28,023 nucleotides of DNA from an uncultured Verrucomicrobiota bacterium (GTDB taxonomy: Bacteria > Verrucomicrobiota > Kiritimatiellia > CAIQIC01 > Lenti-01). Positions 112 to 20,289 of the stretch are shown piece by piece (position 1 is the first letter of the stretch; every line of letters starts with the position of its first letter). The position numbers and the translations under genes were made by a program. Where the stretch lies: positions 1 through 28,023 of the forward strand of contig CAYODC010000005.1 of NCBI GenBank assembly GCA_964402575.1. Reading direction: 5' to 3'. Below the pieces are notes generated by a model that saw only the letters and a list, made by a program, of their open reading frames with translations, had not been told where the DNA came from and did no database searches.

Positions 112-1170
112 TCAGACGTACTTTTCCATGATCGAGGCGGCTTTGATATGAGCCTCTGAATTGTTGGCGATGTACCGAGCCGTTGTCTGGAGATTCGTGT
201 GGCCCATGAGTTGGGCGATGACAGCCTGATTGGTTTCGTTGGCCCCTTGCATGGTTCCGTAGAAATGTCTCCAAGCATACGGCGGACGGACGGGAATCTT
301 TGCCCTCTTGCAGGCTCTGGCCAAACGAATACGAAGGGCGTTCCTTGTATACGGGTTGTTGCCACCGTTCAAGAAAACAAAAATGGATTTGGGATGCTTC
401 TGGGATTGGCGTCGGAAAATCTCAATGGCCATAGGCCCCAAGGTGACGGAACGAGGCGTCGGGGTCTTTGCCGATTCGGAGGTCTTGTGATGCTCAATCC
501 TTACGGTCATCGCAGACCCGTTGATCTCCACATCGGCCTTCCGCAATGTCCGCAGTTCGATGGGACGAAGCCCAGTCAGGATGGAGAACCGAATCAGGTC
601 TGCGAAATCCGGCTTTGCCGCCTTGAGCAACAGGGGTATCTCATCGGCCGTGAATTTCTTGGTCATCGGTGGCTTTTGGCTGGCAACAGGAAACTTCCTG
701 ACCGGGCAATCGCAAACCCCAAACTCTTCACCCCAGCGGAACATGGTCTTGATTTCCCGAAGGGCATGAAAACCGGCATTCACTCCCCGTCCATGGTGCT
801 TGCGAGAATGGGTGTAGTAGGCGTCTAGGTCGATGAAGGTGATTTCCATAACCATTTTGTTGCCGATATAGTCCAAGAAGTGGCAGATGAAACGCTGGCG
901 CGACAGGAACGTCTCTTCCGCCCTGTTCGCCTTGACCCAGGCCAAATGCTTAACGGCCAACTCCTTGACGTGGACATCCTTCTTCCCATCAACGGCCACC
1001 ATTGTGGACTCAACGCCCCCAATCTGAAGTTTGTCACTCTTCAGGTTTTCTTCCAGTTCCCGCAGTTTCTCCCCAGCCTTCCGCTTGTTCGGGCCAAGAT
1101 TGAACCTCTTGCCCTGAATGAAGGAATAGTAGTTCCCATTCGGATGCCAAGTTGGAGACCGTTTTCTCAT
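112..1170 (-). CDS. int: Tyrosine recombinase / integrase (352 aa)
   Basis: Catalytic set GLRPIEL (R), HHKT (K), YAWRH (HxxR box with Tyr for the first His), LMGH, TARY (Y). Short N-terminal arm-like region plus a core-binding region. ATGA overlap with the upstream HTH gene. Confidence 0.95.
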   Translation of the reverse strand: MRKRSPTWHPNGNYYSFIQGKRFNLGPNKRKAGEKLRELEENLKSDKLQIGGVESTMVAVDGKKDVHVKELAVKHLAWVKANRAEETFLSRQRFICHFLDYIGNKMVMEITFIDLDAYYTHSRKHHGRGVNAGFHALREIKTMFRWGEEFGVCDCPVRKFPVASQKPPMTKKFTADEIPLLLKAAKPDFADLIRFSILTGLRPIELRTLRKADVEINGSAMTVRIEHHKTSESAKTPTPRSVTLGPMAIEIFRRQSQKHPKSIFVFLNGGNNPYTRNALRIRLARACKRAKIPVRPPYAWRHFYGTMQGANETNQAVIAQLMGHTNLQTTARYIANNSEAHIKAASIMEKYV

Positions 1171-1514
1171 GCCAACTTCCTCTTCGGGGCTATGAGGTCG
1201 GACTCGGCATATTCCTTGGGAAGGCGGGAAACAGGCTTGTTCGCCCTCTCAAGGGACTGGACGATGCCGTAGTGGCCACAGAGGTAGTTCTCCAAGTCCC
1301 GCTCCAGAACCAACATCTTGGAGCAGGTTCGGATGACCGGAACCTTTCCTTTGAGAATCTCCGCACGCATCTGACTCTCCGAAATCCCCGCCGTCTTGGC
1401 TGCCTGCCTGACCGTCAGCTTGGTCGCCTCCACCAGACCCAGGGACACCCCAGTTGAAACCGGGTGTGGGACCGATTCAACCGGGGAATTGCTGGGCTGG
1501 AGGGGACGAGGCAT
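1167..1514 (-). CDS. Excisionase-like HTH DNA-binding protein (HTH_17/Xis-like, 115 aa)
   Basis: LTVRQAAKTAGISESQMRAEILKGKVPVIR followed by a wing-like segment (MLVLERDLENYL). Its stop overlaps the integrase ATG (1167-1170). Confidence 0.8.
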   Translation of the reverse strand: MPRPLQPSNSPVESVPHPVSTGVSLGLVEATKLTVRQAAKTAGISESQMRAEILKGKVPVIRTCSKMLVLERDLENYLCGHYGIVQSLERANKPVSRLPKEYAESDLIAPKRKLA

Positions 1515-6786: not shown

Positions 6787-9576
6787 TCATTCGTCCCTTT
6801 CAAACAGAAAACTGAATGCTTCACTCCTCCCGTCTTCGGGCTCCTCCACTGTCCAATTGGTTTCGCTTTCGTGGGATGTCGTGGAGATTGGTGGGGTCGC
6901 TTGCCTTGCAGGCCATGCCCCGATCTCCCCATCCCCGGCAGGCGACAGTTCCATTTTCCTCTTAACCGGCTCCTGCGACATCGCGCCAGAGAACAGCAAG
7001 GGGTTCGACGCATACTTTTCCGAAGGCCTTCCCTTTACGAATTTCTCCTCCAGCCTAGCGATGTAGCCCAAGTCTTCCAGTCTCGTCAGGGCAGGGCGAA
7101 TGTCGTCCATAGACTTGACCTCCATGCAACCCCTCGTCCAAAGCAGGACTTCCCTGGCAGTAAACGTCTTGGCGTCCTTTTCAACGATATGCCTGACAAC
7201 CCTGGCCAGCAGTCCTTCCCTTGACTCGGTCTTGATTCCCAGCATGGCTTGCTCATTCTTAACGGCGAACCAATTCATCAGCCTGACGGCCCTGGTCATC
7301 ATGTCCTGGTGGATCGGGGTTCGTTCGTCGAGACCTGCCATGAGGTGCAACAGGCCAGCAATCCTGACCGTCCGTCCGGCAAACTTGTTCCACCAGGCTT
7401 GCATCTCTCCCATCTTGGGTGCGTGGAAATCTGCCCAAGTGTAATGCTTGCCTAGGATTTCCAAAGCCTCCTTGGAAAGCGATAGGATTCTAAATGGAAT
7501 TCCGCCTTCTTCATTTGGTTCGTCCAGTTGGTCGGCTTTCGCCAGAGGCTCCATTACAGCCTCATAAGCCAAACGCTTCCCGATATCTATAGCATCCTCC
7601 CTCCAGCCCGTAGGCATCCTTTCAACCTTGATAAGCAGGCATCGAGGAATCAATCCCTGGTCCTGCAACTCCTCACCATGGGACTCCAGGGCAGACCAGA
7701 GACGCCTAGGCTGGATGTATGTCAAAACAGGTATCGCTGGGTACTTCACCCGGCCAGAACCTTCACCGGCACGCACCCTGGAATCCGAACTCAAATCGTA
7801 TCCCTTGAGGATGAATTCGTTGGCTGTTTTCCCTTCCGAGTGAAACCCCGTCACCGCATTGACAAACTGCCCACCCTCGTCGGTTACAATTGCCACTTTG
7901 GCGATGCCCGCCTTGTTGGCCGTCCGGCCAGCCATCACTTCAACGGCCTGCGTCGTTAGATTTGAGACCATGTAGTATGGGTCTGGCGGTGGAGTGCCGA
8001 GTTCCTTGTCCAGTTCAACCAATCGCGTCTTGGCTTCATCGGTTGATATGCTCTTGTCGGCCTGAACTGCGGAAATCCTCTTCTCAATTACCCGTTTCAG
8101 GCATTTGTATTCCCGAAGTTTATCGTCATGGTCTTTGATGCGCCTCTCCAAGTCGTTTTCGATGGGGGTCATGATGGCTTTGAATTCAGGCGTCTTCTTC
8201 TCTCCCGAACCCGCAACTTTTATCAGCCACAAGGCCAAGGGCTCCATCCAACCGGGTTTGACTTCAACCTTCCACTTGTCACTGGCGAGCACCGAGGCGA
8301 CTGTTATCATCGAAGCGGTCACCGAACCTGTTTCGTAACCGAATTCCTTTGCGATGTCGTCGGCATACTCGACCAGTTCTGGTGGCAGGCATTCTCTGGG
8401 GAATACCGGCTCCTCAATTCTCTCCTCCAGGGCTGGAGGATGTTCCTCGGGGAAGAGGACGGAGTATTTCGACCATCCAACTTCTTCGGCCATATGGAAC
8501 AGCGTTCCCAAAGTGACTTTGTCGTCCCTGGAGCCACCGAATGACTTCCATTTGTCGTCCAGTATCCCTGGTTCATACCTTTCAGAGTCTCTGGCAGACC
8601 AACTATGCCAAATATCCAAGCCTTTCTCCGCGTCCCATGATCTCATGGCCATGCCAATCTTGAGCCATCCATCATAATCCAGCTTGGAAGGGTCTATGGC
8701 TTCCAAGGCCGAGAGAATCCTCCTCTGGTCTGGTGGGGCGGACTTGCTGAAAGAAGGTGTAGAGTCACGCTTCATGGATTCTTTTGTGGAATAGGATATG
8801 CCACCAACAAGCATAATCCTGTCTCGGGGTACGGCTTCGATGGTTTCTGGAACATGGAGGATTTGGGAACCCCGATGGGGACGTTCTGGCGTGTTTTCGC
8901 CCTTCCGACTGACGACGCCAGGGATCTTGGCGATTCTGGATGCGTTGTGAACAGACTGATCTACATCCACTGGGTTTCCCCTTGTCTTCAGCCCGAACTT
9001 CGACCCCAAGACCCTGAGAACTTCCCTAGGAAGGTCATCCTTGGGCTCAAGGTCGCACCGGTAGTAGAGGTGATACCCATTGCCAGAATCCACCACGATG
9101 GGGTCTGGCCAGCCTTGGCTGGAGAGCCATGATTTGGCCGCCATGCAGACCGCCCAAGCTTTGGCCTTTTCTTCAGAAGTCGCCGAGGTGTCGGTGAGTC
9201 TTGTCGGGTCGAAGTCAATGTAGATCCAGTTGCGACTGGCTATGTCCTCGTCTTTGGCTGCGACTTTAGCCCAACGGAAACTGTCAGGAGCACGGTCGTG
9301 AAGCCCGCTATGAACGGGATTGACTGTTACATAGGCATGCCCGCCTTCATGATCATCCCAGAACTTATTCAAGACATCTGACGCCGTCTTGGCATCCCCG
9401 AAGAATCCAGACGAGTTGCCGGGCACCATGCATCCATTCGCCAGCGAATCGAGGATTCGGATCTCGAACGTGCTTCCTTCGGCATGTAGGATTTTCAGAA
9501 ACCTCTCTGCCTCTTCCTTGTTCCATTTAGGTTCGGCATCCATGGGGACGCCTTCATTCATTTTGTCTTCCTGCAT
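6787..9576 (-). CDS. Replication protein: AEP-type primase/polymerase + PriCT-2 + DUF3987 (YfjI-like) helicase region (929 aa)
   Basis: WIYIDFD and VVDSGNGYHLYY (AEP motifs); LDYDGWLKIGMAM...WHSWS...KWKSF (PriCT-2); FPRECLP, VAGSGEKKTP, VTDEGG, QP, GLIPRCL, KFAGRTVRIAGLLHL, LEDLGYI (DUF3987-type). AAGGA SD upstream. Confidence 0.9.
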   Translation of the reverse strand: MQEDKMNEGVPMDAEPKWNKEEAERFLKILHAEGSTFEIRILDSLANGCMVPGNSSGFFGDAKTASDVLNKFWDDHEGGHAYVTVNPVHSGLHDRAPDSFRWAKVAAKDEDIASRNWIYIDFDPTRLTDTSATSEEKAKAWAVCMAAKSWLSSQGWPDPIVVDSGNGYHLYYRCDLEPKDDLPREVLRVLGSKFGLKTRGNPVDVDQSVHNASRIAKIPGVVSRKGENTPERPHRGSQILHVPETIEAVPRDRIMLVGGISYSTKESMKRDSTPSFSKSAPPDQRRILSALEAIDPSKLDYDGWLKIGMAMRSWDAEKGLDIWHSWSARDSERYEPGILDDKWKSFGGSRDDKVTLGTLFHMAEEVGWSKYSVLFPEEHPPALEERIEEPVFPRECLPPELVEYADDIAKEFGYETGSVTASMITVASVLASDKWKVEVKPGWMEPLALWLIKVAGSGEKKTPEFKAIMTPIENDLERRIKDHDDKLREYKCLKRVIEKRISAVQADKSISTDEAKTRLVELDKELGTPPPDPYYMVSNLTTQAVEVMAGRTANKAGIAKVAIVTDEGGQFVNAVTGFHSEGKTANEFILKGYDLSSDSRVRAGEGSGRVKYPAIPVLTYIQPRRLWSALESHGEELQDQGLIPRCLLIKVERMPTGWREDAIDIGKRLAYEAVMEPLAKADQLDEPNEEGGIPFRILSLSKEALEILGKHYTWADFHAPKMGEMQAWWNKFAGRTVRIAGLLHLMAGLDERTPIHQDMMTRAVRLMNWFAVKNEQAMLGIKTESREGLLARVVRHIVEKDAKTFTAREVLLWTRGCMEVKSMDDIRPALTRLEDLGYIARLEEKFVKGRPSEKYASNPLLFSGAMSQEPVKRKMELSPAGDGEIGAWPARQATPPISTTSHESETNWTVEEPEDGRSEAFSFLFERDE

Positions 9577-9618
9577 TTTATCTTTCCTTTATTGCAGGGA
9601 ATCCGAACAGCGACGATG

Positions 9619-9624
9619 TATAAT
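9619..9624 (+). promoter_or_regulatory. Candidate -10 element (TATAAT) of an antisense RNA
   Basis: Perfect TATAAT about 40 bp upstream of the plus-strand terminator. No well-spaced -35 was found. Confidence 0.35.
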
Positions 9625-9661
9625 ATTGTAACAATGGTTCGTTCCCGTTGTGTTTCGTTGG

Positions 9662-9692
9662 ATGCCTCCCGGCCACGGGAGGCGTTCTTTTT
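9662..9692 (+). terminator. Intrinsic terminator oriented antisense to the RHH-primase transcript
   Basis: Stem GCCTCCC (9664-9670) / GGGAGGC (9677-9683), 6-nt loop, followed on plus by GTTCTTTTTT. No T-tract follows the stem on minus. Confidence 0.7.
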
Positions 9693-9905
9693 CTAGTTCA
9701 TATTAGTCTCCATGGTTGGGTCGGATTTCGGCTCCGACTGTCCATCCTCAGGCTGAATGAAAGGCTCCAGTCCCTGGCGCATGAGGAACGATAGGGAAAC
9801 CCGCCTGGAAGAAGCGCGAGAACGTAGTCTCATATATTCGTCCTCCGAGATCCTGGTGTTGACGATCCGTTTCCGATCCAGTGAATATCTTTCATTTGAA
9901 ATCAT
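9693..9905 (-). CDS. Ribbon-helix-helix protein (CopG/MobC-like, 70 aa)
   Basis: RIVNTRISEDEYMRLRSRASSRRVSLSFLMRQGL fits strand-helix-helix. Directly upstream of the replication gene. Confidence 0.8.
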   Translation of the reverse strand: MISNERYSLDRKRIVNTRISEDEYMRLRSRASSRRVSLSFLMRQGLEPFIQPEDGQSEPKSDPTMETNMN

Positions 9906-10087
9906 GCCGATTCTTCTTTGTTTACATATGCTTCTCGGATCGGTCGCCGGTTTCCTCTATTTATTTATGCTTTTCTTAAAATATTTTCAGGGCGAGGTTC
10001 ACAAGGAGCAAGGGAAATGGCCCCAGTCTGACCGCAACAATATTATACAGGGAACCGCGACCGGGAATTCCCACTGGATGCCATCAC

Positions 10088-10241
10088 ATTTTTGCGATTA
10101 TTGCGACGGCCTCTCTATAGGGGTCTGTGTTGGAAAATAGAGAGAGAGAAATATATCTAAATATGCCTTTAGGGAGGCCTACACGAAAATCGCAAAAATC
10201 CCCCCAGGCCTTCCCAACGACATTTATGTGATTATTGCGAC
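10088..10241. repeat. Repeat cluster in a long non-coding region (candidate origin or recombination site)
   Basis: 12-bp IR ATTTTTGCGATT (10088-10099) / AATCGCAAAAAT (10188-10199); inner 8-bp IR CTCTCTAT (10111-10118) / ATAGAGAG (10137-10144); 12-bp direct repeat GATTATTGCGAC (10096-10107, 10230-10241). Confidence 0.7.
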
Positions 10242-10808
10242 TACCGTTTAGGGCGTTTTCTCTTCAAAAGTCCCAAATGAAGGGGTTGTGGTCTCACAAT
10301 GGGTCAGGGGGTGGGATCAGGCCTGAAGCCCACCCCAATTCCTGTGCAGTGACAAAATACCTGCCTAAAGAGAACTGTAGGCCAGCCGAAATTGTGAAAT
10401 GGGGTTGGAGGGCTAGTCGCCCCAAGGAATCCTCCCCCCCGGCCATTTTCTCGATTTTTTGTAAGAAACATCATCTCTCTATGAATCCGAAAATGGCTCC
10501 CTCGAAAAGTCCTGGGCAGCCTTGTGGCTTAGGTGACCAATATCTAGGCCATTTTCCCGCAAGACACCCCCGCCCCTCTTCCTGGGGGAAATCACAGACA
10601 TTTGCTTTTCAGCCTGGATCGGCCAAGACGCCCTTCCGCCTGAAGACTTCTAGCCCAATAGCGACCCAACCTGGAAAATTCTGTCCGATAATTGGGTCAG
10701 TATCACCTAAATGGCGGAACAAGTTGGACCCGTCCTGCGAGGAACTAGGTCAGTTTCTCTTCTTGTTGACCCAGTTAGGAGGCCTTTTGAAGGACGAGTG
10801 CAGGAAGA

Positions 10809-11471
10809 TCAGGCGACCGAGATGGCGGAAGCGACGCTTTTCCGTCTCGGGCTTTGCAGGGAACCGAGGAGCTTCTCCATGGCATTCATGCCGGCGATGG
10901 ACTGCTCGGGAGAAATATCAGCATACACTTGAGTAACCGTCAGGCTGGAGTGGCCAAGTTGTTTCTGAACCAACCTCAAAGAATTGGTCGCCTCGTAGAG
11001 CACCGTGGCGTTGGTATGCCTGGCGTCATGTAGCCGGTGATTGGGAACGTACTTCTTCCACCTTTTATACACGCCACTTGGCGCATACTTTGGACTGCGC
11101 TCGCTCCGAAGGAAGAAGTCTTCTGGCGATTGAATCTCGCCCCGTTCGACCTTCCACTTCATATACCAGCGAACATCGGAAGCGAAGCCTTTAGGCAAAT
11201 GGACATGGCGAGTCTTTCCGCCCTTACCCCTGCGGACCAAAAGACGGCTGTTTCCCCCGAAGATCGAAAAGTCCCCGCACCGGAGTTCGCAGACCTCGAA
11301 ACGCCGAAGGCCTGTATAGATGAAGGTCTGGATAATCATCCAATCTCTGATGAGCTGGGGCCTTTTCTTGGCAATTCCAAGCGTTTTGATTTCCTCGGCA
11401 CGCAAGAGCAGCGCGGTCAGTTCCTGCCGGTTGAGGAATTTTTCGGGCGTGATCTCCCAGTTCGGGTTCAT
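10809..11471 (-). CDS. Catalytic-domain-only tyrosine recombinase (220 aa)
   Basis: TGLRRFEV (R), RGKGGK (K), HRLHDARH (HxxR), LGHSS, TQVY (Y). Begins directly at the catalytic domain (PEKFLNRQEL). ATGA overlap with the ruvB-like stop. Confidence 0.95.
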   Translation of the reverse strand: MNPNWEITPEKFLNRQELTALLLRAEEIKTLGIAKKRPQLIRDWMIIQTFIYTGLRRFEVCELRCGDFSIFGGNSRLLVRRGKGGKTRHVHLPKGFASDVRWYMKWKVERGEIQSPEDFFLRSERSPKYAPSGVYKRWKKYVPNHRLHDARHTNATVLYEATNSLRLVQKQLGHSSLTVTQVYADISPEQSIAGMNAMEKLLGSLQSPRRKSVASAISVA

Positions 11472-12442
11472 GCTGATACCTCCTGTAGAGTGGCAAACAT
11501 CTCTCTGGCCTTTTCCGTCGCCACCCGTCCCCTGGACGACCGGCGGAGAAGTCCTTCCCGGATGAGATGGGGCTCCATGGCCTGTTCAATGGTCTCGATG
11601 GTTTCATTCAACGCTGCCGAGACCGACGTGAGCCCCACCGGCTGGTCGGCTTGGATGAGCATCCCCAGATACCGCCGATCCTGCCCCGTCAGCCCAGAGG
11701 CGTCCACGTCCCGCATAGCATACGCTTCCTGAACGGCGTTGAGATCAGGGGCGACTCCCAGGCCCGACGAATACTCAACCAGCCAGCGCAGATGGCCGAT
11801 TGCTATGCGAGCAGTGGAACGAGACCGCTTGGCTACTTCCATGGCGACGCCTAGTTCCAATTCGACGCCCATGGCCTTGGAGGCCCGGAGGACAATGCGA
11901 GTCAGGTCGTCGAGGCTGTATGGCTCAAGGGTCAGCTCATGAGCAAAACGGCTACGCAATGGCGCAGATACCAGGCCAGACATCGTAGAGGCTCCCAATA
12001 AAGTGAAAGGCGGAATGGCGACCATCTCGGTGGCTGGCTTTGCCTGGACGCCCAGGGCCCGCATGAAGTCGGAGGACTCTGTCTTGACCACCGGAACCAA
12101 ATTGTCCTCCATCGCCGGATACAGGATTTCTTCCACCGATCTGGCCATCGCGTGAATCTCATCGATGAAGAGGACATCCAGGGGCTTCAGGGAGCGAAGG
12201 AGTCCAATGAGTTGCTCTGGAGCCTGGAGATTTCCGCCGATGGTCTCCACCAGCTTACCTCCAATTTCGTTGGCGACAATTCTGGCCAGCGTCGTTTTCC
12301 CCAATCCAGGGGGTCCAGAAAGAAGGACATGGCTGACAGAGGTCTTCTTGGTCTTGGCAGATCGGCAGAGGATCTGGAGGACTTGCCTGACACGCTCTTG
12401 GCCAATGAAGTCATTGAGGCTGGATGGGCGGATGCATTGCAT
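11468..12442 (-). CDS. ruvB: RuvB-like Holliday-junction branch-migration AAA+ ATPase (324 aa)
   Basis: RPSSLNDFIGQ, GPPGLGKTT (Walker A), LFIDEIH (Walker B), EEILYPAMED, PPFTLLGA, PLRSRF (Arg finger), STARIA (sensor II), C-terminal wHTH PVGL...EPHLIREGLLRRSSRGRVAT. Confidence 0.93.
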   Translation of the reverse strand: MQCIRPSSLNDFIGQERVRQVLQILCRSAKTKKTSVSHVLLSGPPGLGKTTLARIVANEIGGKLVETIGGNLQAPEQLIGLLRSLKPLDVLFIDEIHAMARSVEEILYPAMEDNLVPVVKTESSDFMRALGVQAKPATEMVAIPPFTLLGASTMSGLVSAPLRSRFAHELTLEPYSLDDLTRIVLRASKAMGVELELGVAMEVAKRSRSTARIAIGHLRWLVEYSSGLGVAPDLNAVQEAYAMRDVDASGLTGQDRRYLGMLIQADQPVGLTSVSAALNETIETIEQAMEPHLIREGLLRRSSRGRVATEKAREMFATLQEVSA

Positions 12443-12587
12443 ATCTTTACCTATTGATCTTTAGTGCAACAGATCCCAGTGAAAACGGGTCGCTGGCCCC
12501 TGGGACGAATCAAGGCCTGTTTTCCCGAGAAGTGACATAATTTTTTCCATAAAAAACCTGCGTGGGCGGTGTCCCGTAGAATTACAT

Positions 12588-12812
12588 CTATGTGCCAACG
12601 CCACATCCCAGGCCCCGCCTTTGCCCGCCGATTGGTGCAGATAACCCGTCCAAACGCTTCCGCCTGATGGCATTGGTTGGCTTTATCATCGCCAATCCCG
12701 TTCGATTCTGGGCGATGGCGGTCACATTCGGCTCGGAAACCGCCGATAAATATATGAAGCCAGCATTCTGCCTCAGGGGATCTGCCTCAAATCTGGAGCC
12801 CTTCCGCATCAT
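12588..12812 (-). CDS. Small basic hypothetical protein (74 aa)
   Basis: AGGAGG SD 6 nt before ATG, 10 bp after the stop of the 112-aa gene. No family recognised. Confidence 0.55.
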   Translation of the reverse strand: MMRKGSRFEADPLRQNAGFIYLSAVSEPNVTAIAQNRTGLAMIKPTNAIRRKRLDGLSAPIGGQRRGLGCGVGT

Positions 12813-13182: not shown

Positions 13183-14850
13183 TTATGCCAGCCCTTCCGC
13201 CCCTTCGGTCTCGTTGATGGCCTTCCTTATGTCTGCCAGTCTGACAACGATGTCCCCAGGCTTGTCGTCGTAGAGATGTCCTTCGACCAGGGTTCCTAGG
13301 ATAGTTTTCACCGCTCTGGAATATCCACGAATTTCGCAAGCCCAGTTGGCAAGGTACTGAATGGCTTCATCCGTCAAGTCGAGACTCATGCCGAAGGACT
13401 GAAGAAAGGCGTTTTGGCGGGCAAGCAGGCCTGTCCTTGGGTGAGAAGTGATGCGGACGATCTGCTCGGGAGTCGGATCTGGGAGGACAATGATCGCCCC
13501 GATCCGATTGACGATCTGCTCCATGAAGCCATATTTCACAAGGGCGTCTCGGATATCACTCCTTGCAGCCTTTGCTCCGGCCGACCCAAAGCCAAGCCCC
13601 GAAGACTTGCGGTTGCCATCAGCCAGCAGATCCCGAAGCCCCTGAAAGGCTCCGCAAAGCAGAAAATTTGTTTCCCAGCAGTCCAGCACGCCCATATATG
13701 GTGTATTTGATCGCCTTGAACCCAACGGCAGCTTGCATCCCTCCAGAGGCTTCAGCAATTCGGCCTGGATTCCTCGGCCCTGAGGGTCTGTCGATGAATG
13801 GCCTCCGTCACCCTTGGCGCAGAGCTTGTCAAATTCGTCCATGACCAGGATGCCCTTCTGGGCTTCTGACGGCTTGGTCTTGTTGGCCAGCAGGCCGAAG
13901 AAACACTCGTCAATGCTCAACCCGACATAGGAAGCCTGAGAAACCCCTGACATATCGGCTACCGAATATGGGAGTCCGCTGACTCTGGCGAATGATTCTG
14001 CCATATGTGTTTTTCCGCTTCCGCTGGAGCCGATTAAAAGGGTCACAACTGGAGAAACACTTGGCCTGACTCCCTTACGAATCTGCTCCAGACGACGCAT
14101 ATGGAGACTCATTTGGGCGGAAAAACGACGCAAGGGGACATCTATGCCGATGACCTCGTTTTTCAAGGTATCGAAAATTCCCATGGCCGTCAGCAGCTTG
14201 GGGGTCTCGCCGGGCTTCTGGACGGAAGGGGGAGGTTCTGCATTGCGTGATACTGTTGCAGACTTATGAGATTCGGAAATATTCTTCCGCACCCATTCAT
14301 CCCTGTCCCTCTGAAGGCTCTCTGCATCCCAAATCACAGGAAGGTTGTCGTTGCTCAGAAACTTGGACAATTTCCATGCAGGCAACAACTCGCCTCCTGC
14401 GTAATCGGTTTCCTTGTAGCAGATGGCATCCTTTCTACCAACGAGCATTCGGATCGTCCTGCGACTTTCAAGATGAAGGCTCATATCTCCTAGCGAGGCC
14501 GCCGTTGCAGCTCTTGCAACCGATATTCCCGAACGCTCTGTGGTCAAAGAACCCCAGCCAATGTAGGAGATGATTCTCAAGGCAATATGGTCGCCGAGAA
14601 CCTGGTCGCCCCTGATCTCTAATAGCGATCGCAACAGCCGTTGGTTGGTGTCATAGGCGGCAGTCTCTATTCGCTTCTCAATAGCCTCGATTTCAGAACG
14701 AAGCCTAGAAGCCTCATGAGGCCGAATAGGTCTCGTCAGCCCAAGTTCGCTCTGGGGGAACGCATACTGATGCAGGAGTTGGCCAAGCCGAAGGACATCG
14801 GCAGTGGCCTGCTCTCTGGTGGGCATTGATTCTTTGGACTCTTCAGCCAT
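13183..14850 (-). CDS. ClpX-like AAA+ ATPase with an unrecognised ~215-aa N-terminal region (555 aa)
   Basis: EVIG, LLIGSSGSGKT (Walker A), SYVG pore loop (cf. GYVG), ILVMDEFDK (Walker B), GIQAELLK (cf. GVQQALLK), FLLCGAF (cf. FICGGAF), GLGFG loop, LVKYGFMEQIVNRI. No C4 zinc-binding domain. Confidence 0.88.
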   Translation of the reverse strand: MAEESKESMPTREQATADVLRLGQLLHQYAFPQSELGLTRPIRPHEASRLRSEIEAIEKRIETAAYDTNQRLLRSLLEIRGDQVLGDHIALRIISYIGWGSLTTERSGISVARAATAASLGDMSLHLESRRTIRMLVGRKDAICYKETDYAGGELLPAWKLSKFLSNDNLPVIWDAESLQRDRDEWVRKNISESHKSATVSRNAEPPPSVQKPGETPKLLTAMGIFDTLKNEVIGIDVPLRRFSAQMSLHMRRLEQIRKGVRPSVSPVVTLLIGSSGSGKTHMAESFARVSGLPYSVADMSGVSQASYVGLSIDECFFGLLANKTKPSEAQKGILVMDEFDKLCAKGDGGHSSTDPQGRGIQAELLKPLEGCKLPLGSRRSNTPYMGVLDCWETNFLLCGAFQGLRDLLADGNRKSSGLGFGSAGAKAARSDIRDALVKYGFMEQIVNRIGAIIVLPDPTPEQIVRITSHPRTGLLARQNAFLQSFGMSLDLTDEAIQYLANWACEIRGYSRAVKTILGTLVEGHLYDDKPGDIVVRLADIRKAINETEGAEGLA

Positions 14851-14951: not shown

Positions 14952-15497
14952 CTAGTCGAACTTGATCCGCAGGTTGTCCCCTTCACGAATCAATGCGAAG
15001 CCGTCACGGCAGGAGCGGTGTTTTCGCTCCGAATCGGTCGAGGCGGACAGGATCACGGCCAGATCGTACCGCGCATGGGTCTCATCCTTGCCATTGGCCT
15101 TGCTGAAAGCGCGAATGAGATCGGGCTTCCCGATGCCCTTGGAGCCTGCCGAGGCAATCAAATCCACCAGCAAACCATACGAACTTCCCTCCCTGAAAGG
15201 ATTCTTGGGGTGACGGGCGACAGTGGACTTCCTGGGGCTCTTTGCGGTCTTTTTGACAGCCTTCTGAGCCCGTTTTTCCTTCGGCGTCGCCACCAATCGT
15301 TCGGACTTCGCCGTCCCCGCCTTGTTCCCAGCCAGGATGGCCTCGATGCCAGGTACGGTCTCCCGCAGCTTCTTGGCCGTCGAACCCGACAACTTGTTTC
15401 CACCCCCAAGCAACCGATAGACTTCGGTGAGCGACTTGGGCGATTTGGATTCCAGAATCTCGACAATCTTCTCTTTCGACACTTCCATTGTAGACAT
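14952..15497 (-). CDS. Hypothetical basic protein (181 aa from ATG 15497), possibly DNA-binding
   Basis: AAGGAGG SD before ATG 15497. Two compact regions joined by a Lys-rich linker (KEKRAQKAVKKTAKSPRKS). Confidence 0.75.
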   Translation of the reverse strand: MSTMEVSKEKIVEILESKSPKSLTEVYRLLGGGNKLSGSTAKKLRETVPGIEAILAGNKAGTAKSERLVATPKEKRAQKAVKKTAKSPRKSTVARHPKNPFREGSSYGLLVDLIASAGSKGIGKPDLIRAFSKANGKDETHARYDLAVILSASTDSERKHRSCRDGFALIREGDNLRIKFD

Positions 15498-15677
15498 GAC
15501 AACCTCCTTGATGGTTGGTTGTGTCATATCGTGGAAGTGCAGTTCTGTAAGCTGCCTATTTTCGTGATTTCGCCACATTTTTCTGTGGAGTGAAAAACAG
15601 ACCTTCAGCCAGTCCAACCCACGCCTGGGCGATCTCCCAGATCGATTTTCCTGATGTTCAATAGGCGGATACTACGC

Positions 15678-16690: not shown

Positions 16691-16746
16691 TCTTGCGAAG
16701 GCTGGAAATACATCGGCGAGGACAAGGAATTCCAAGAAGGAAGAAC

Positions 16747-17181
16747 ATGACCCAAGGCATCCCGGCTTCTGCCATCTGGCCATCCCTGCGCCTTTTCCTG
16801 CTGACCCTGTTGGTGTCGGGACAGATTCATTCCTATGGGCAGTCCGACTCATCTTGGCAAAGAGATGCAGGAGCCGTCGCCCGTAGCCACGTCAGCGGAA
16901 TGATCAACTCCGGGGCGGGAATCAGAGCCTCTCTCGTAGGCTACCAAAGGGGATTGGGCGTCCCGCTTATCGCCATCTACAACTACGAGGGGTACACGAC
17001 CGGGGGATTCCTAAAGCGAACGATGCTATCGGTGGCCATGCAACGCGACCAGCAAGGCAACTGGCATGTCGTGGCCGCCGAGGAAGGCGGGGTTTTCGAG
17101 GGGCTACCCTTGCGAAGCGACTGGCGACAGGTCGCCCAAGACGGCGGGCGGGCCAGAGAAGTCCAGAGACGCGGTTATTGA
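16747..17181 (+). CDS. Putative secreted protein (144 aa)
   Basis: AAGGA SD before ATG 16747. Hydrophobic signal-like stretch LRLFLLTLLVSGQIHSYG. Stop 13 bp before the next gene. Confidence 0.7.
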   Translation: MTQGIPASAIWPSLRLFLLTLLVSGQIHSYGQSDSSWQRDAGAVARSHVSGMINSGAGIRASLVGYQRGLGVPLIAIYNYEGYTTGGFLKRTMLSVAMQRDQQGNWHVVAAEEGGVFEGLPLRSDWRQVAQDGGRAREVQRRGY

Positions 17182-17194
17182 GGAGTATTCGCAG

Positions 17195-19870
17195 ATGAAC
17201 TTCAAATGTCGGGTCGGCCAAGCTCATCGGATCGGATTTCAATGTCTCATGGCGGGATCGCTCATTCCCGTCTTCTTCACCGGATGTTCCGACAGCCGAA
17301 AGGAAGCCGAGGTTGCCTCATCCTCTGTCGTTGCCACAACCCCTTCGGTTGCCACGTTGTCTGCCAAGACGCTTACCGACGCCTTCGCCTTGAACGAAAA
17401 TTCAGCAAATCAGACATACAAGGGCAATGTCATCACCGTATATGGGCCAGTTCAGGAAAAGCATGACGAAGGCGACAAGGCCTTGGTGGTTTTGACGGGT
17501 GGGATTAACCAAGAGGTTTTCTGCACCGTTTCTCCTCGGCTTTCGGGAGATGCAGACGATCTTGAGGTTGGAAGAACGGCTATCATCAAGGGTAAATGCC
17601 TTGGAATCGTCCAGGGAAACCTCTCGCTAGACAAGTGCGTCATCGAGGATCGACTGAGGGAACTGAAGGCCAAGGCAAAGTCGGGGGATTCGACCGCCCA
17701 ATTCGACCTTGCCAAGGCCCTTGAGACGCCTGCCAAGGAAATTCGCGACATTCGGCGGGCGTTCCATCTCTACTGTCAAGCTGCGGAGGCAGGCCACGAA
17801 GATGCCAAATGGACGGTTACGAGGGCCTTGGCGAACGCATGGAGTCCCGAAACCAATGCCCCTGTTATCTGGCAATGGCTCAAGGAGGAGGCGGAGACCG
17901 GCAATGCGGAAGCCTGCTATCTGATGGGAATACTCTTCAACGTGAACGAAGACTTCGGCATCGATCCCAAAGCGGGAGTCCCTTGGTTCAAAAAGGCTTC
18001 GGATGGCGGTCATCAGGAAGCCACATACACCATGGCCGTGCTCAACTACGAAGGTGAACTGGTCCCAACCAACAAGGCCGAGTCAGCACGCCTCCTCTCT
18101 CTCGTCGATCCCCAGCGTCAACCGAGGGCAGCGGAGTCTCTTGGCCTAATGCGCTTGCTGGGTGATGGCATTGAGGCAGATGTTCCCAACGGTCTGTCAC
18201 TCCTTGAAACGGCGGTCGCATACGGGAGAGCCCAATCCGCTTCCACCCTTGGGCGCATCTATCTGTACGGCGTGGCGGTGCCAAAGGACCGAGAGAAAGC
18301 CCGCGAATGGTTTCTCAAGGCGGCGGAAATGGGAGATGCCTATGGGCAGGTCAAGGCCGGGCTCCTGCTGGGCGGAAAGGACTCGGCCCGCTTCGAGCGG
18401 AGCCGGAACTTGGTTTTCGCAGCCCTGAGCAACGACCAGCAAGTTGCATATACGGAAATCGTTTCCTTCATGACGGATGAAGTGACCGGCATGCTGGAGA
18501 CCGACAATCCTCCCCTGGCTCCCCAGGATTCGATGTGGTTCCGCAAGATCAATGGCACGCTGGGTGGGGGCAAGTTCATCGGCCTCAACGAAGGGGTTCT
18601 GGATTTGATGTCGGACACCAACCGCATCGCAGTCCCCCTTGCGGATCTCGACGTGGCCGGGCGAACCCGATACGACCCCGAGTTCCGTAGCCTTCTGGCC
18701 CGCTCCATCATCACGGAAAACGTATATGCCATGACGGCGGAATTCAAGCAGCCCAAACCCAAGCCCTCGACAAACGACTGGACGGAGGCTTTGAGAACAT
18801 TGGCAGACGATGGGGAACCAGACGCCATGGCATGGCTGGGAAACAGCCTGCTGGAAGACCCGAAGACCAGGGAGGAAGGCATTGGCTGGCTGAAGAAGTC
18901 TGCCGAGGCGGGATCTGCCTATGGGCAGAACGCCATGGGGATGGTCTGCCTAAGCGGCATCGGCCAATCCGTGGACAAGGAAACGGCATTCCGCATGTTC
19001 AAGCTGGCGTCGGAACAAGGCTATTCAGAATCGACTTTCACCGTCGGACGGATGCTCATGGCAGGGGCGGGTTGCGAAAAGGACTCGAATGGCGGGCTTG
19101 GCCTCATCAGGCAGGCGGCAAACGAAGGAGAGATTCCTGCAATCTTGTTTTTGGGACGCTACTTCTATGGAGACCGGCGGGGCTCTCGCGATGCCGCTCA
19201 AGCCTTTGCATGGTTCCGTTGGGGAGCCGTCATGGGAAGCCCGGAAGCCCAATACTGGCTGGGACGGATGTATTACGAGGGAAGAGGACTGCCCAAGGAC
19301 TACAACCGGGCGATCCAATGGCTGTCTTCATCTTCCGGTCAAGACTATCAACCCGCTAGCCATTACCTTGAAAGCGATTCCGCCAACCGTCAGGAAATGG
19401 CCAGGGCCAAGGCCGCCTACCAGCAAGAACTGGAGAGACACGCGGACCAAGTGGAGCGAATCCGACAAAACCCCAAGTACGATCTGGTCAATTACCTTTC
19501 AGGTGCCCCGCGAAGATTTTCCAAATCAAGCACGGAAAGGGAGGCTTATAGCCAGTTCCATAAGAACCTCTCGCAAGGATACTCTTTACGCGCGGCCGCC
19601 TCCAAGGCATGGGAAGATGTCGGCGTCGCGCCTCGCGCTTCGCCTCGCGCATCGTCGCAGTCTAGTTCTGGTTCGATCTTTGGAGGCGCGACCGATCCGA
19701 GAGATCGGCTGGCGATAGCAAAGGCAACGCAGAACATGCTTGGAAATCGGTTTTCAACGATAGGCAGTCCATTTGACGGCTGGTCTTCCCTTCCTACCTA
19801 TTGGTCCGATGAGCAAACTTGGCGCGACAGACAGCTAGAGGCCATCCAGGGAAGCACGATGGGATTCTAG
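17195..19870 (+). CDS. Lipoprotein with tRNA_anti-like OB fold, Sel1-like repeats and an SHD1-like domain (891 aa)
   Basis: GAGGAG SD; lipobox-like FTGC; SAKTLTDAF...YKGNVITVYG...GRTAIIKGKC (tRNA_anti-like); many Sel1 repeats (AQFDLA, ACYLMG, AREWFLKAAEMG, AQYWLGRMYYEGRG, AIQWL); WFRKING...KFIGLNEGVL...IAVPLADLD (SHD1-like). Confidence 0.9.
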   Translation: MNFKCRVGQAHRIGFQCLMAGSLIPVFFTGCSDSRKEAEVASSSVVATTPSVATLSAKTLTDAFALNENSANQTYKGNVITVYGPVQEKHDEGDKALVVLTGGINQEVFCTVSPRLSGDADDLEVGRTAIIKGKCLGIVQGNLSLDKCVIEDRLRELKAKAKSGDSTAQFDLAKALETPAKEIRDIRRAFHLYCQAAEAGHEDAKWTVTRALANAWSPETNAPVIWQWLKEEAETGNAEACYLMGILFNVNEDFGIDPKAGVPWFKKASDGGHQEATYTMAVLNYEGELVPTNKAESARLLSLVDPQRQPRAAESLGLMRLLGDGIEADVPNGLSLLETAVAYGRAQSASTLGRIYLYGVAVPKDREKAREWFLKAAEMGDAYGQVKAGLLLGGKDSARFERSRNLVFAALSNDQQVAYTEIVSFMTDEVTGMLETDNPPLAPQDSMWFRKINGTLGGGKFIGLNEGVLDLMSDTNRIAVPLADLDVAGRTRYDPEFRSLLARSIITENVYAMTAEFKQPKPKPSTNDWTEALRTLADDGEPDAMAWLGNSLLEDPKTREEGIGWLKKSAEAGSAYGQNAMGMVCLSGIGQSVDKETAFRMFKLASEQGYSESTFTVGRMLMAGAGCEKDSNGGLGLIRQAANEGEIPAILFLGRYFYGDRRGSRDAAQAFAWFRWGAVMGSPEAQYWLGRMYYEGRGLPKDYNRAIQWLSSSSGQDYQPASHYLESDSANRQEMARAKAAYQQELERHADQVERIRQNPKYDLVNYLSGAPRRFSKSSTEREAYSQFHKNLSQGYSLRAAASKAWEDVGVAPRASPRASSQSSSGSIFGGATDPRDRLAIAKATQNMLGNRFSTIGSPFDGWSSLPTYWSDEQTWRDRQLEAIQGSTMGF

Positions 19871-19938: not shown

Positions 19939-20289
19939 ATGCTATGCCTTAACTGTGGTCGACAGGTCGAGTTTGTCGGCAAGGTCTGCCCCTGGTGCGG
20001 AGCCCAGAAAGTCCAATCCCAGAATTTACAAATTACAGCACTGTTCTGGGGGCTTTTAGGGACTTTCCTTGGTGCCGGAGTTGGCTGGGAATTCAACAGC
20101 GTCGTTGGCGCGGTCATCGGCGGGATAATCGGAATGGTCGGGGGCACCGCCCTTGGGATTGCCAGGGCTTCCGCCCCAATGAACCAGAACGTAAAATGTC
20201 CCCTTTGCGGAACCGACCTGGTGGTGGATCGGGCGAAGGGGCCGAACTACAATTGCCCAAAATGCGGGGGCCTGTTTCATCTTCAGTGA
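19939..20289 (+). CDS. Double zinc-ribbon membrane protein (116 aa)
   Basis: CLNC/CPWC and CPLC/CPKC pairs flank two Gly-rich hydrophobic segments. AGGAGG SD. Confidence 0.85.
   Translation: MLCLNCGRQVEFVGKVCPWCGAQKVQSQNLQITALFWGLLGTFLGAGVGWEFNSVVGAVIGGIIGMVGGTALGIARASAPMNQNVKCPLCGTDLVVDRAKGPNYNCPKCGGLFHLQ

Follow-up and report, generated by a model that had tools for sequence, protein, structure and literature searches.

A RuvB-like ATPase coupled to a catalytic-domain-only tyrosine recombinase in mobile elements of Verrucomicrobiota and Lentisphaerota: a possible site-specific recombination cassette

Why would the gene of a RuvB-like motor, with neither ruvA nor ruvC beside it, overlap the gene of a short tyrosine recombinase? 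In the prevailing view, tyrosine recombinases need no external energy source to isomerise their Holliday junction, and to our knowledge the action of FtsK on XerCD is the only well-known case of a motor controlling an enzyme of this type. The question is raised by a 28,023-nucleotide stretch of DNA (contig CAYODC010000005.1; "the window" below means this whole 28-kb stretch) from the metagenome-assembled genome (MAG) of an uncultured Verrucomicrobiota bacterium. We use Rec as the name of the short tyrosine recombinase coupled to the RuvB-like protein. The evidence leaves it about evenly poised whether the RuvB-like protein, Rec and an array of inverted half-sites downstream of Rec make up a self-contained site-specific recombination cassette, with RuvB as its junction motor and multimer resolution as its probable purpose. 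The cassette is carried by mobile elements of Verrucomicrobiota and Lentisphaerota that integrate and also replicate themselves, and the host of the element in the window is a wastewater bacterium. The gene pair is laid out as follows.

11468 to 12442, minus strand: RuvB-like AAA+ motor, 324 amino acids (aa), from Pfam, NCBIfam, alignments, an AlphaFold2 (AF2) model and trees.
10809 to 11471, minus strand: Rec, a catalytic-domain-only, Xer-like tyrosine recombinase, 220 aa, from Pfam, NCBIfam, alignments, an AF2 model and Protein Data Bank (PDB) matches.
11468 to 11471, minus strand: ATGA, in which the stop codon of RuvB and the start codon of Rec overlap (the plus strand reads TCAT).

The TGA stop codon of the RuvB gene shares two letters with the ATG of Rec (ATGA on the coding strand), and AGGAGG lies 7 nucleotides (nt) 5' of that ATG, at plus-strand coordinates 11479 to 11484. 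The original prediction, made from the letters of the window, had described this overlap, a recombinase reduced to its catalytic domain, a complete RuvB, and a window free of ruvA and ruvC. The overlap at 11468 to 11471 stands on the sequence, and the Rec protein does consist of the catalytic domain only, to judge by its Pfam match and single-domain model. The window indeed contains neither ruvA nor ruvC; in the MAG, RuvA_N is found on contig C139, where no ruvB adjoins it, and RuvC on contig C428. "Complete" proved apt for the domains and ATPase motifs of the RuvB-like protein but not for its presensor-1 beta-hairpin, which contains a 10-residue insert compared with Escherichia coli RuvB.

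Is this protein the chromosomal RuvB of its host? We compared the MAG of the window (G000; 64% complete, 495 contigs) with 30 relatives, all of which encode a RuvB that is 40% to 44% identical to the window RuvB. Only two congeners, G001 (85% identity) and G011 (83%), hold an additional window-type copy beside their own housekeeping RuvB. The housekeeping ruvB of the MAG is simply unassembled, and the window gene is not an ortholog of the organism's chromosomal ruvB. In trees drawn from a 1.8-billion-protein library, 20 Rec-paired RuvBs fell on one side of a branch supported at 99 by the Shimodaira-Hasegawa-like approximate likelihood ratio test (SH-aLRT, IQ-TREE); the clade that holds the window protein had support of 96 to 99 in FastTree, and the housekeeping RuvBs of the genus and order formed a separate clade (support 99). 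A RuvB phylogeny was one of the checks that the original prediction had proposed, and it returned a distinct accessory clade (SH-aLRT 99) outside the host chromosomal RuvBs. We conclude that the Rec-coupled RuvB is a separate, horizontally moving clade.

The window protein has all three RuvB domains in Pfam (RuvB_N, 1.7e-49; AAA_lid_4, 1.1e-08; RuvB_C, 2.6e-19), and its AF2 model has a predicted local distance difference test score (pLDDT) of 90.7. The Walker A and B motifs, the trans-acting ED pair, the arginine finger, the sensor-2 arginine and the RGR motif of the DNA-binding head are kept, as judged by alignment with E. coli RuvB and across 36 RuvBs. NCBIfam scores place the protein at the edge of RuvB, above the cut-off of NF000868 (313.7; cut-off 282) and below that of TIGR00635 (286; cut-off 299.05). 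The three-domain architecture is shared with the RuvAB(C) systems of E. coli, T. thermophilus and S. thermophilus (PDB 9dx4, 1ixr and 7pbl), at about 40% identity and an E value of 6e-66. Compared with those systems, the window RuvB is encoded without RuvA and RuvC, belongs to a separate clade, carries a hairpin insert of the 12-to-17-aa class, lacks the N-terminal extension and always has Rec downstream.

The most distinctive feature of the clade is located in the presensor-1 beta-hairpin. In the window protein the insert occupies approximately residues 121 to 136 (SDFMRALGV; 10 aa relative to E. coli RuvB). All 19 clade members had an insert of 12 to 17 aa with the motif (S/D)D(F/L)MKxLG, and the 17 other RuvBs compared had no such insert; both housekeeping RuvBs and other divergent RuvB-like proteins lack it. 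In the AF2 model the insert forms a short helix at the tip of the hairpin, a part that is modelled with less confidence. All clade members also read (S/A)TAR(I/T)A in place of GTPRIA and lack the approximately 20-aa N-terminal extension of housekeeping RuvB. The presensor-1 hairpin, together with helix alpha-3, is the docking site of RuvA domain III, which stimulates the motor (PMC9477746). The window RuvB departs from the canonical RuvA-docking hairpin and, because the insert sits in the very hairpin that docks RuvA domain III, the loader interface appears to be rewired. The alignments show a putative RuvA-docking hairpin that is remodelled throughout the clade.

We also observed a second RuvB-like lineage, at 30% to 32% identity, represented by L020 17687 to 18625 (G011:C35) and L022 8292 to 9680 (G026:C134). 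Its members have the three RuvB domains and no hairpin insert; in one of them the N-terminus is extended by 150 aa. In G011, just 7 kb separates a copy from the RuvB-Rec pair.

Rec is reduced compared with other Xer-like recombinases. Its only Pfam match is Phage_integrase (1.3e-22), which spans residues 23 to 188 of 220 and so leaves no space for a core-binding domain; the N-terminal core-binding (CB) domain is accordingly absent. AF2 folds Rec as one domain (pLDDT 86.5), and PDB matches of Rec align just to the C-terminal domains of chains of 266 to 356 aa, the best structural matches being archaeal XerA (4a8e) and XerH (5jk0). None of the equivalog cut-offs was reached for XerC (76.7 versus 335), XerD (62.5 versus 330) or XerA (83.4 versus 220). 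The Rec family is uniformly short, and the catalytic pentad RKHRH with its nucleophile (R56, K83, H148, R151, H174 and Y183) is invariant in 42 Rec sequences. Rec is, like the enzymes of XerCD-dif/FtsK, XerH-difH and archaeal XerA, a "simple" tyrosine recombinase of Xer type. FtsK-XerCD offers the closest functional analogy to the gene pair, in that a hexameric DNA motor controls a tyrosine recombinase. The differences are that Rec has no core-binding domain and falls far below the XerC cut-off, and that the motor is a RuvB, co-translated and element-borne, whose interaction with the recombinase we infer.

Distant Rec-family recombinases of about 205 aa in Bipolaricaulota and Thermotogae have a neighbourhood of their own, conserved over 19 loci in the two phyla (L048, L054, L067, L070, L071, L073 and others). 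This neighbourhood looks chromosomal, and these proteins may be the minimal Xer-type enzyme of those lineages.

Is the pairing with RuvB a peculiarity of the window? Loci were reached with RuvB as the starting point (92% to 40% identity) and also with Rec (95% to 35%), in MAGs labelled Verrucomicrobiota, Lentisphaerae and Lentisphaerales and in metagenomes. A recombinase of 209 to 255 aa (Phage_integrase) was found downstream of RuvB in 18 of the 18 loci examined, so the gene-neighbourhood search that had been suggested with the original prediction points to a conserved, dedicated module. Among 14 measured pairs, the two genes overlapped by 4 nt in eight and by 28 nt in one (start uncertain), were separated by gaps of 12 and 18 nt in two, and had a RadC/JAB gene between them in three. 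Gene calls give the 4-nt overlap at L030, L123, L124 and L125 as well. Neither RuvA nor RuvC families appeared in the Pfam lists of the paired-locus neighbourhoods examined. The distance matrices of RuvB and Rec are correlated (Mantel r = 0.67, p = 2e-4), and the cassette is inherited as a unit.

The clearest indication of what the pair does comes from elements that lack it. The mobile element is the left 16 to 20 kb of the window, and its main parts are these.

10277 to 12623, minus strand: swappable cassette of RuvB, Rec and array, delimited by nucleotide comparison with G001:C11.
12624 to 12664, minus strand: conserved leader 5' of the recombinase slot, common to RuvB-type and resolvase-type elements.
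13183 to 14850, minus strand: AAA+ ATPase resembling ClpX, whose N-terminal part (about 215 aa) matches no known family (Pfam/NCBIfam, neighbourhoods).
6787 to 9905, minus strand: replication module, comprising a NikA-like ribbon-helix-helix (RHH) protein (9693 to 9905) and a PriCT_2-DUF3987 primase-helicase (6787 to 9576), from Pfam; 83% nt identity to G001:C11.
112 to 1514, minus strand: full-length tyrosine integrase (112 to 1170) and 115-aa HTH_17 (Xis-like) protein (1167 to 1514), presumed to be the integration module of the element and distinct from Rec.

Along the minus strand, from about 16.8 to 0.1 kb, the order is XRE-type regulators with a conserved 221-aa protein, the ClpX-like gene, RuvB-Rec, about 0.9 kb of non-coding DNA, the RHH and primase-helicase genes, Dam and Dcm methyltransferases, and the Xis-like and integrase genes. 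Two sister elements of the same genus, G001:C11 and G011:C19, share the backbone without RuvB-Rec; in them the ClpX-like gene is immediately followed by that of a serine recombinase of 198 to 206 aa (Pfam Resolvase, 1e-43 and 7e-47). Window positions 16692 to 13190 and 10276 to 6819 align to G001:C11 at 71% to 83% nt identity, and the backbone flanking the cassette is 82% to 83% identical. Between these blocks, window 12623 to 10277 is replaced in G001:C11 by 1.7 kb without homology to it, which contains the serine recombinase gene and an open reading frame (ORF) of 171 aa. The same swap, with the leader shared, was seen between G011:C35 and G011:C19. At the level of nucleotide alignment, these comparisons show a clean exchange of the RuvB-Rec-array cassette for a small serine recombinase of the resolvase/invertase family. 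Because the slot is swapped with a small serine recombinase, the cassette is expected to carry out a site-specific reaction inside the element. The original prediction had listed integration across heterology among the possible reactions; the slot swap tells against that and favours resolution or another site-specific reaction within the element.

If the cassette recombines DNA, where is its site? We found a repeat cluster immediately beyond Rec.

10658 to 10777, no strand assigned: candidate recombination/binding site, four TGACCYARTT half-sites in two inverted pairs.

On the coding strand, the array begins about 30 nt 3' of the Rec stop and reads AACTGGGTCA-N14-TGACCTAGTT, then, after about 43 nt, TGACCCAATT-N22-TTGGGTCG. 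Exact matches to TGACCYARTT number three in the 28-kb window, all of them in the array, compared with 0.28 expected. Approximately 190 nt 3' of Rec, array included, is conserved among the window, G001, G011 and L023. At L045, where Rec is 48% to 50% identical, the same layout with the same N14 spacer lies 1.2 kb after Rec, and the orientation of the array relative to Rec is identical in five loci. Resolvase-type sister elements lack the motif, and the site cluster is single-copy in the MAG. The array is exchanged as part of the cassette and therefore most probably goes with RuvB-Rec, as the candidate site of the pair.

In several respects this arrangement, with its candidate site, resembles the multimer-resolution modules Tn3/gamma-delta resolvase-res, Cre-loxP, ResD-rfsF and XerCD-cer, which likewise place a recombinase by a repeat-bearing site, with one site per self-replicating element. 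It differs from them in that the array has four half-sites with N14 and N19-22 spacers instead of a 6-to-8-bp overlap core, and in that resolution is here a prediction. We know of no resolution system that includes a RuvB-type ATPase.

Alternatively, the inverted repeats could be part of a phase-variation switch that works by DNA inversion, comparable to those of FimB and FimE, in which RuvB would be an accessory factor. FimB and FimE are tyrosine invertases of about 200 aa without a separate N-terminal DNA-binding domain, and Rec is like them in both size and this lack; the serine recombinase of the sister elements is also closest in the PDB to the Gin invertase. We consider an inversion switch highly improbable, however, because each genome has one site cluster, the repeats are separated by about 25 to 110 bp that include neither a gene nor a promoter segment that could be inverted, the array has kept its orientation in the five loci, no strand-switch joints were seen (in contigs only), and Rec has no tyrosine-invertase match in NCBIfam.

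A further alternative is that Rec is the integrase of small islands, that the array is attP-like and that RuvB aids strand exchange during integration and excision. This would suit G001:C14, a 150-kb contig on which Rec is the sole Phage_integrase match, and L041 and L031, where the cassette lies in short islands amid host-like genes (with an HTH_17, Xis-like gene nearby at L041); DNA homology between elements also stops about 190 to 260 nt past Rec. It is difficult to reconcile with the separate full-length integrase and Xis-like gene that both the window and G011 carry at the other end of the element, and with the internal position of the array, which lies between Rec and the replication module with sister-element backbone on both sides. 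No second, hybrid copy of the site occurs in the genome, and neither an empty site nor direct repeats were recovered; a syntenic empty site for the 20-kb G001 region was sought in 20 congeners, with the same result. Overall, we regard an integration role as improbable. The 150-kb contig G001:C14 itself contains no primase and no second integrase.

For site-specific recombination within the element, the reading we favour, we propose the following course. Rec would bind the inverted half-sites and a first strand exchange would create a Holliday junction. A RuvB hexamer would then be recruited without RuvA, via the hairpin insert or its winged-helix head, and would move or remodel the junction or synapse and so complete the reaction or set its direction. 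The serine recombinase of the sister elements could dispense with a motor because it forms no Holliday junction. The role of the cassette would be to resolve multimers of the replicating element, as the serine recombinase that shares its slot may do. The more specific version, in which a RuvA-independent RuvB recruited by Rec or the array through the insert branch-migrates Rec's Holliday junction over an unusually wide crossover of about 14 bp, is a possible but tentative proposal.

Several observations weigh against this account. We infer both the contact between RuvB and Rec and the migration of a Rec junction by RuvB, and a structure prediction of the RuvB-Rec complex scored 0.17 compared with a mark of 0.32, which counts neither for nor against binding. 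The N14 between half-sites exceeds the classical 6-to-8-bp overlap, and binding of Rec there is a prediction only. Logan contigs from four wastewater and bioreactor runs, which are contig-level data, showed neither circles nor inversions, nor any recombination joint at the candidate site. Rec-family proteins of 31% to 40% identity occur without RuvB in Planctomycetota, Bipolaricaulota, Thermotogae and other groups; since these distant members stand alone, a short recombinase can work without this motor, and the lack of an N-terminal domain is in itself no sign that RuvB is needed. RuvBs of a single subclade, 80% to 84% identical, carry two types of Rec that are only about 50% identical, from which it follows that Rec has been exchanged at least once; judged from these identities, RuvB and Rec do not appear to be strictly co-adapted. 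RadC may intervene between them, as at three loci, and at L125 (4025 to 5004) the RuvB gene is spread over three reading frames beside an intact Rec, either as a decaying gene or pseudogene or through indel errors of assembly or sequencing. Finally, the serine recombinase of the sister elements is equally near to Gin invertase and gamma-delta resolvase, with Gin closest in the PDB, so its slot means "small site-specific recombinase" and not strictly "resolvase".

The idea that RuvB stands in for the DNA-binding domain that Rec is missing was also considered; it is weakened by the distant short recombinases that stand alone.

Some of these observations suit another explanation, that two independent functions are packed into one operon. 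Rec would then serve by itself as the resolvase of the element, and the RuvB-like protein would serve element replication or recombinational repair, possibly with host RuvA, in tasks such as fork reversal and recombination-dependent replication; the coupling would be mere compact packing. Related short recombinases without RuvB in other phyla and the swapping of Rec between near-identical RuvBs would fit, as would the RadC, PD-(D/E)XK nuclease and ClpX-like ATPase genes as variable neighbours with roles in DNA metabolism. IncP-9 plasmids also carry ruvAB pairs: pWW0 and pDTG1 have, like the window element, an accessory RuvB on a mobile replicon (PMC2885752), but these plasmids have ruvA beside ruvB and no coupled recombinase. 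Set against this explanation are the pairing in 18 of 18 loci (with RadC between in three) and its movement with the array as one cassette; no locus of the RuvB clade without Rec was found among those examined. The RuvA-docking hairpin is altered in every clade member, and the sister elements, which have the same replication module, do without RuvB and have a recombinase in that slot. On balance, independent functions seem to us rather unlikely.

A defence or counter-defence module against phages that borrows RuvB and recombinase folds was the last alternative that we weighed. The cassette does lie in variable islands near methyltransferases and, in G001, near a cyclase like those of cyclic-oligonucleotide-based anti-phage signalling systems (CBASS). 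Yet PADLOC gave only weak, generic P-loop matches for RuvB (E 7e-06 or weaker) and none for Rec, the active site of Rec is complete, and the slot is shared with a serine recombinase. There was no system-level match for the cassette in PADLOC or PHROGs, and we consider a defence function scarcely credible. The G001 neighbours in question are a DncV-like nucleotidyltransferase and a DUF6602 protein, a CBASS-like pair that lies 3 kb beyond RuvB-Rec on G001:C14 (L019 14368 to 16320).

Other genes around the cassette were variable. The ClpX-like gene lies 5' of RuvB in many loci, but it is no specific companion of RuvB-Rec, as sister elements have it ahead of their serine recombinase. Its homologues at L019 (8101 to 9771), L039 (9553 to 11208) and L037 (14835 to 16508) keep a constant position across the element family but fall into versions with identities of only 36% or 68%; no clpP lies nearby. 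Logan contigs show that related elements are mosaics in which ClpX-like and cargo segments differ between otherwise similar elements. The three ORFs between the ClpX-like gene and RuvB (112, 74 and 70 aa) have no Pfam match; we considered them as a RuvA substitute and rejected them as an obvious one on this ground and because the region is in part the leader shared with resolvase-type elements. At L031 (5243 to 7598), a PD-(D/E)XK nuclease gene is translationally coupled 5' of RuvB-Rec, the three genes being joined by 4-nt overlaps, and at L023 (10658 to 11380) a PD-(D/E)XK nuclease is encoded near the pair on the opposite strand. This suggests that PD-(D/E)XK nucleases and RadC are variable DNA-processing accessories around the pair.

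The non-coding DNA at 9906 to 10276, 5' of the RHH-primase genes, has two kinds of repeat, one direct (22 nt, at 10086 and 10220) and one inverted (34 nt, 10088 to 10121 and 10166 to 10199). This DNA is 83% identical to its counterpart in the resolvase-type sister element and, because it is kept there, belongs to the replication module, not to RuvB-Rec, and is probably the replication origin. An Rfam search of the window found no RNA family.

The most widely conserved neighbour of the cassette is the 221-aa protein at 14952 to 15617 on the minus strand (probably about 180 aa, from an internal start), which has a lysine-rich linker and no family match and is 29% to 65% identical at L019, L020, L023, L025, L027, L037 and L039. 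Beyond it on the plus strand are a 934-aa Sel1-repeat/tetratricopeptide-repeat protein with a tRNA_anti-like oligonucleotide-binding fold (17066 to 19870) and a 116-aa zinc-ribbon protein (19939 to 20289). Both genes are host-like in look and accessory, being present in three of 20 genus genomes, the same three that have RuvB-Rec. The Sel1 gene diverges from the adjoining XRE genes in the window, G001 and L023.

How new is the arrangement? A search of 72,556 plasmid and 50,697 phage records found no member of the Rec-coupled clade, all matches being below 44% identity. The remark in the original prediction that no characterised system of this kind was known agrees with the full-text literature searched, in which a RuvB-recombinase pairing is undescribed; a paper on the classification of tyrosine recombinases makes no mention of one (PMC8138268). 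The cassette is probably an undescribed site-specific recombination module with an unprecedented dedicated motor.

If a RuvA-independent RuvB does branch-migrate the junction of Rec, the cassette would count as the first tyrosine site-specific recombination system to be driven by a motor, and as a non-orthologous replacement, found in nature, of a serine resolvase. A Rec that always travels with its own RuvB would couple junction migration to site-specific strand exchange naturally, and the significance would be considerably greater if the RuvB-Rec coupling is mechanistic. A rewired loader interface would bear on how AAA+ motors of the presensor-1 insert group gain new partners. With two proteins and a defined DNA site, the cassette is compact and can be tested in vitro, and it comes from poorly studied bacteria of the Planctomycetes-Verrucomicrobia-Chlamydiae (PVC) group. 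For the elements themselves, the serine-recombinase swap in the sisters offers a ready comparison for the benefit that the cassette brings to the element that carries it.

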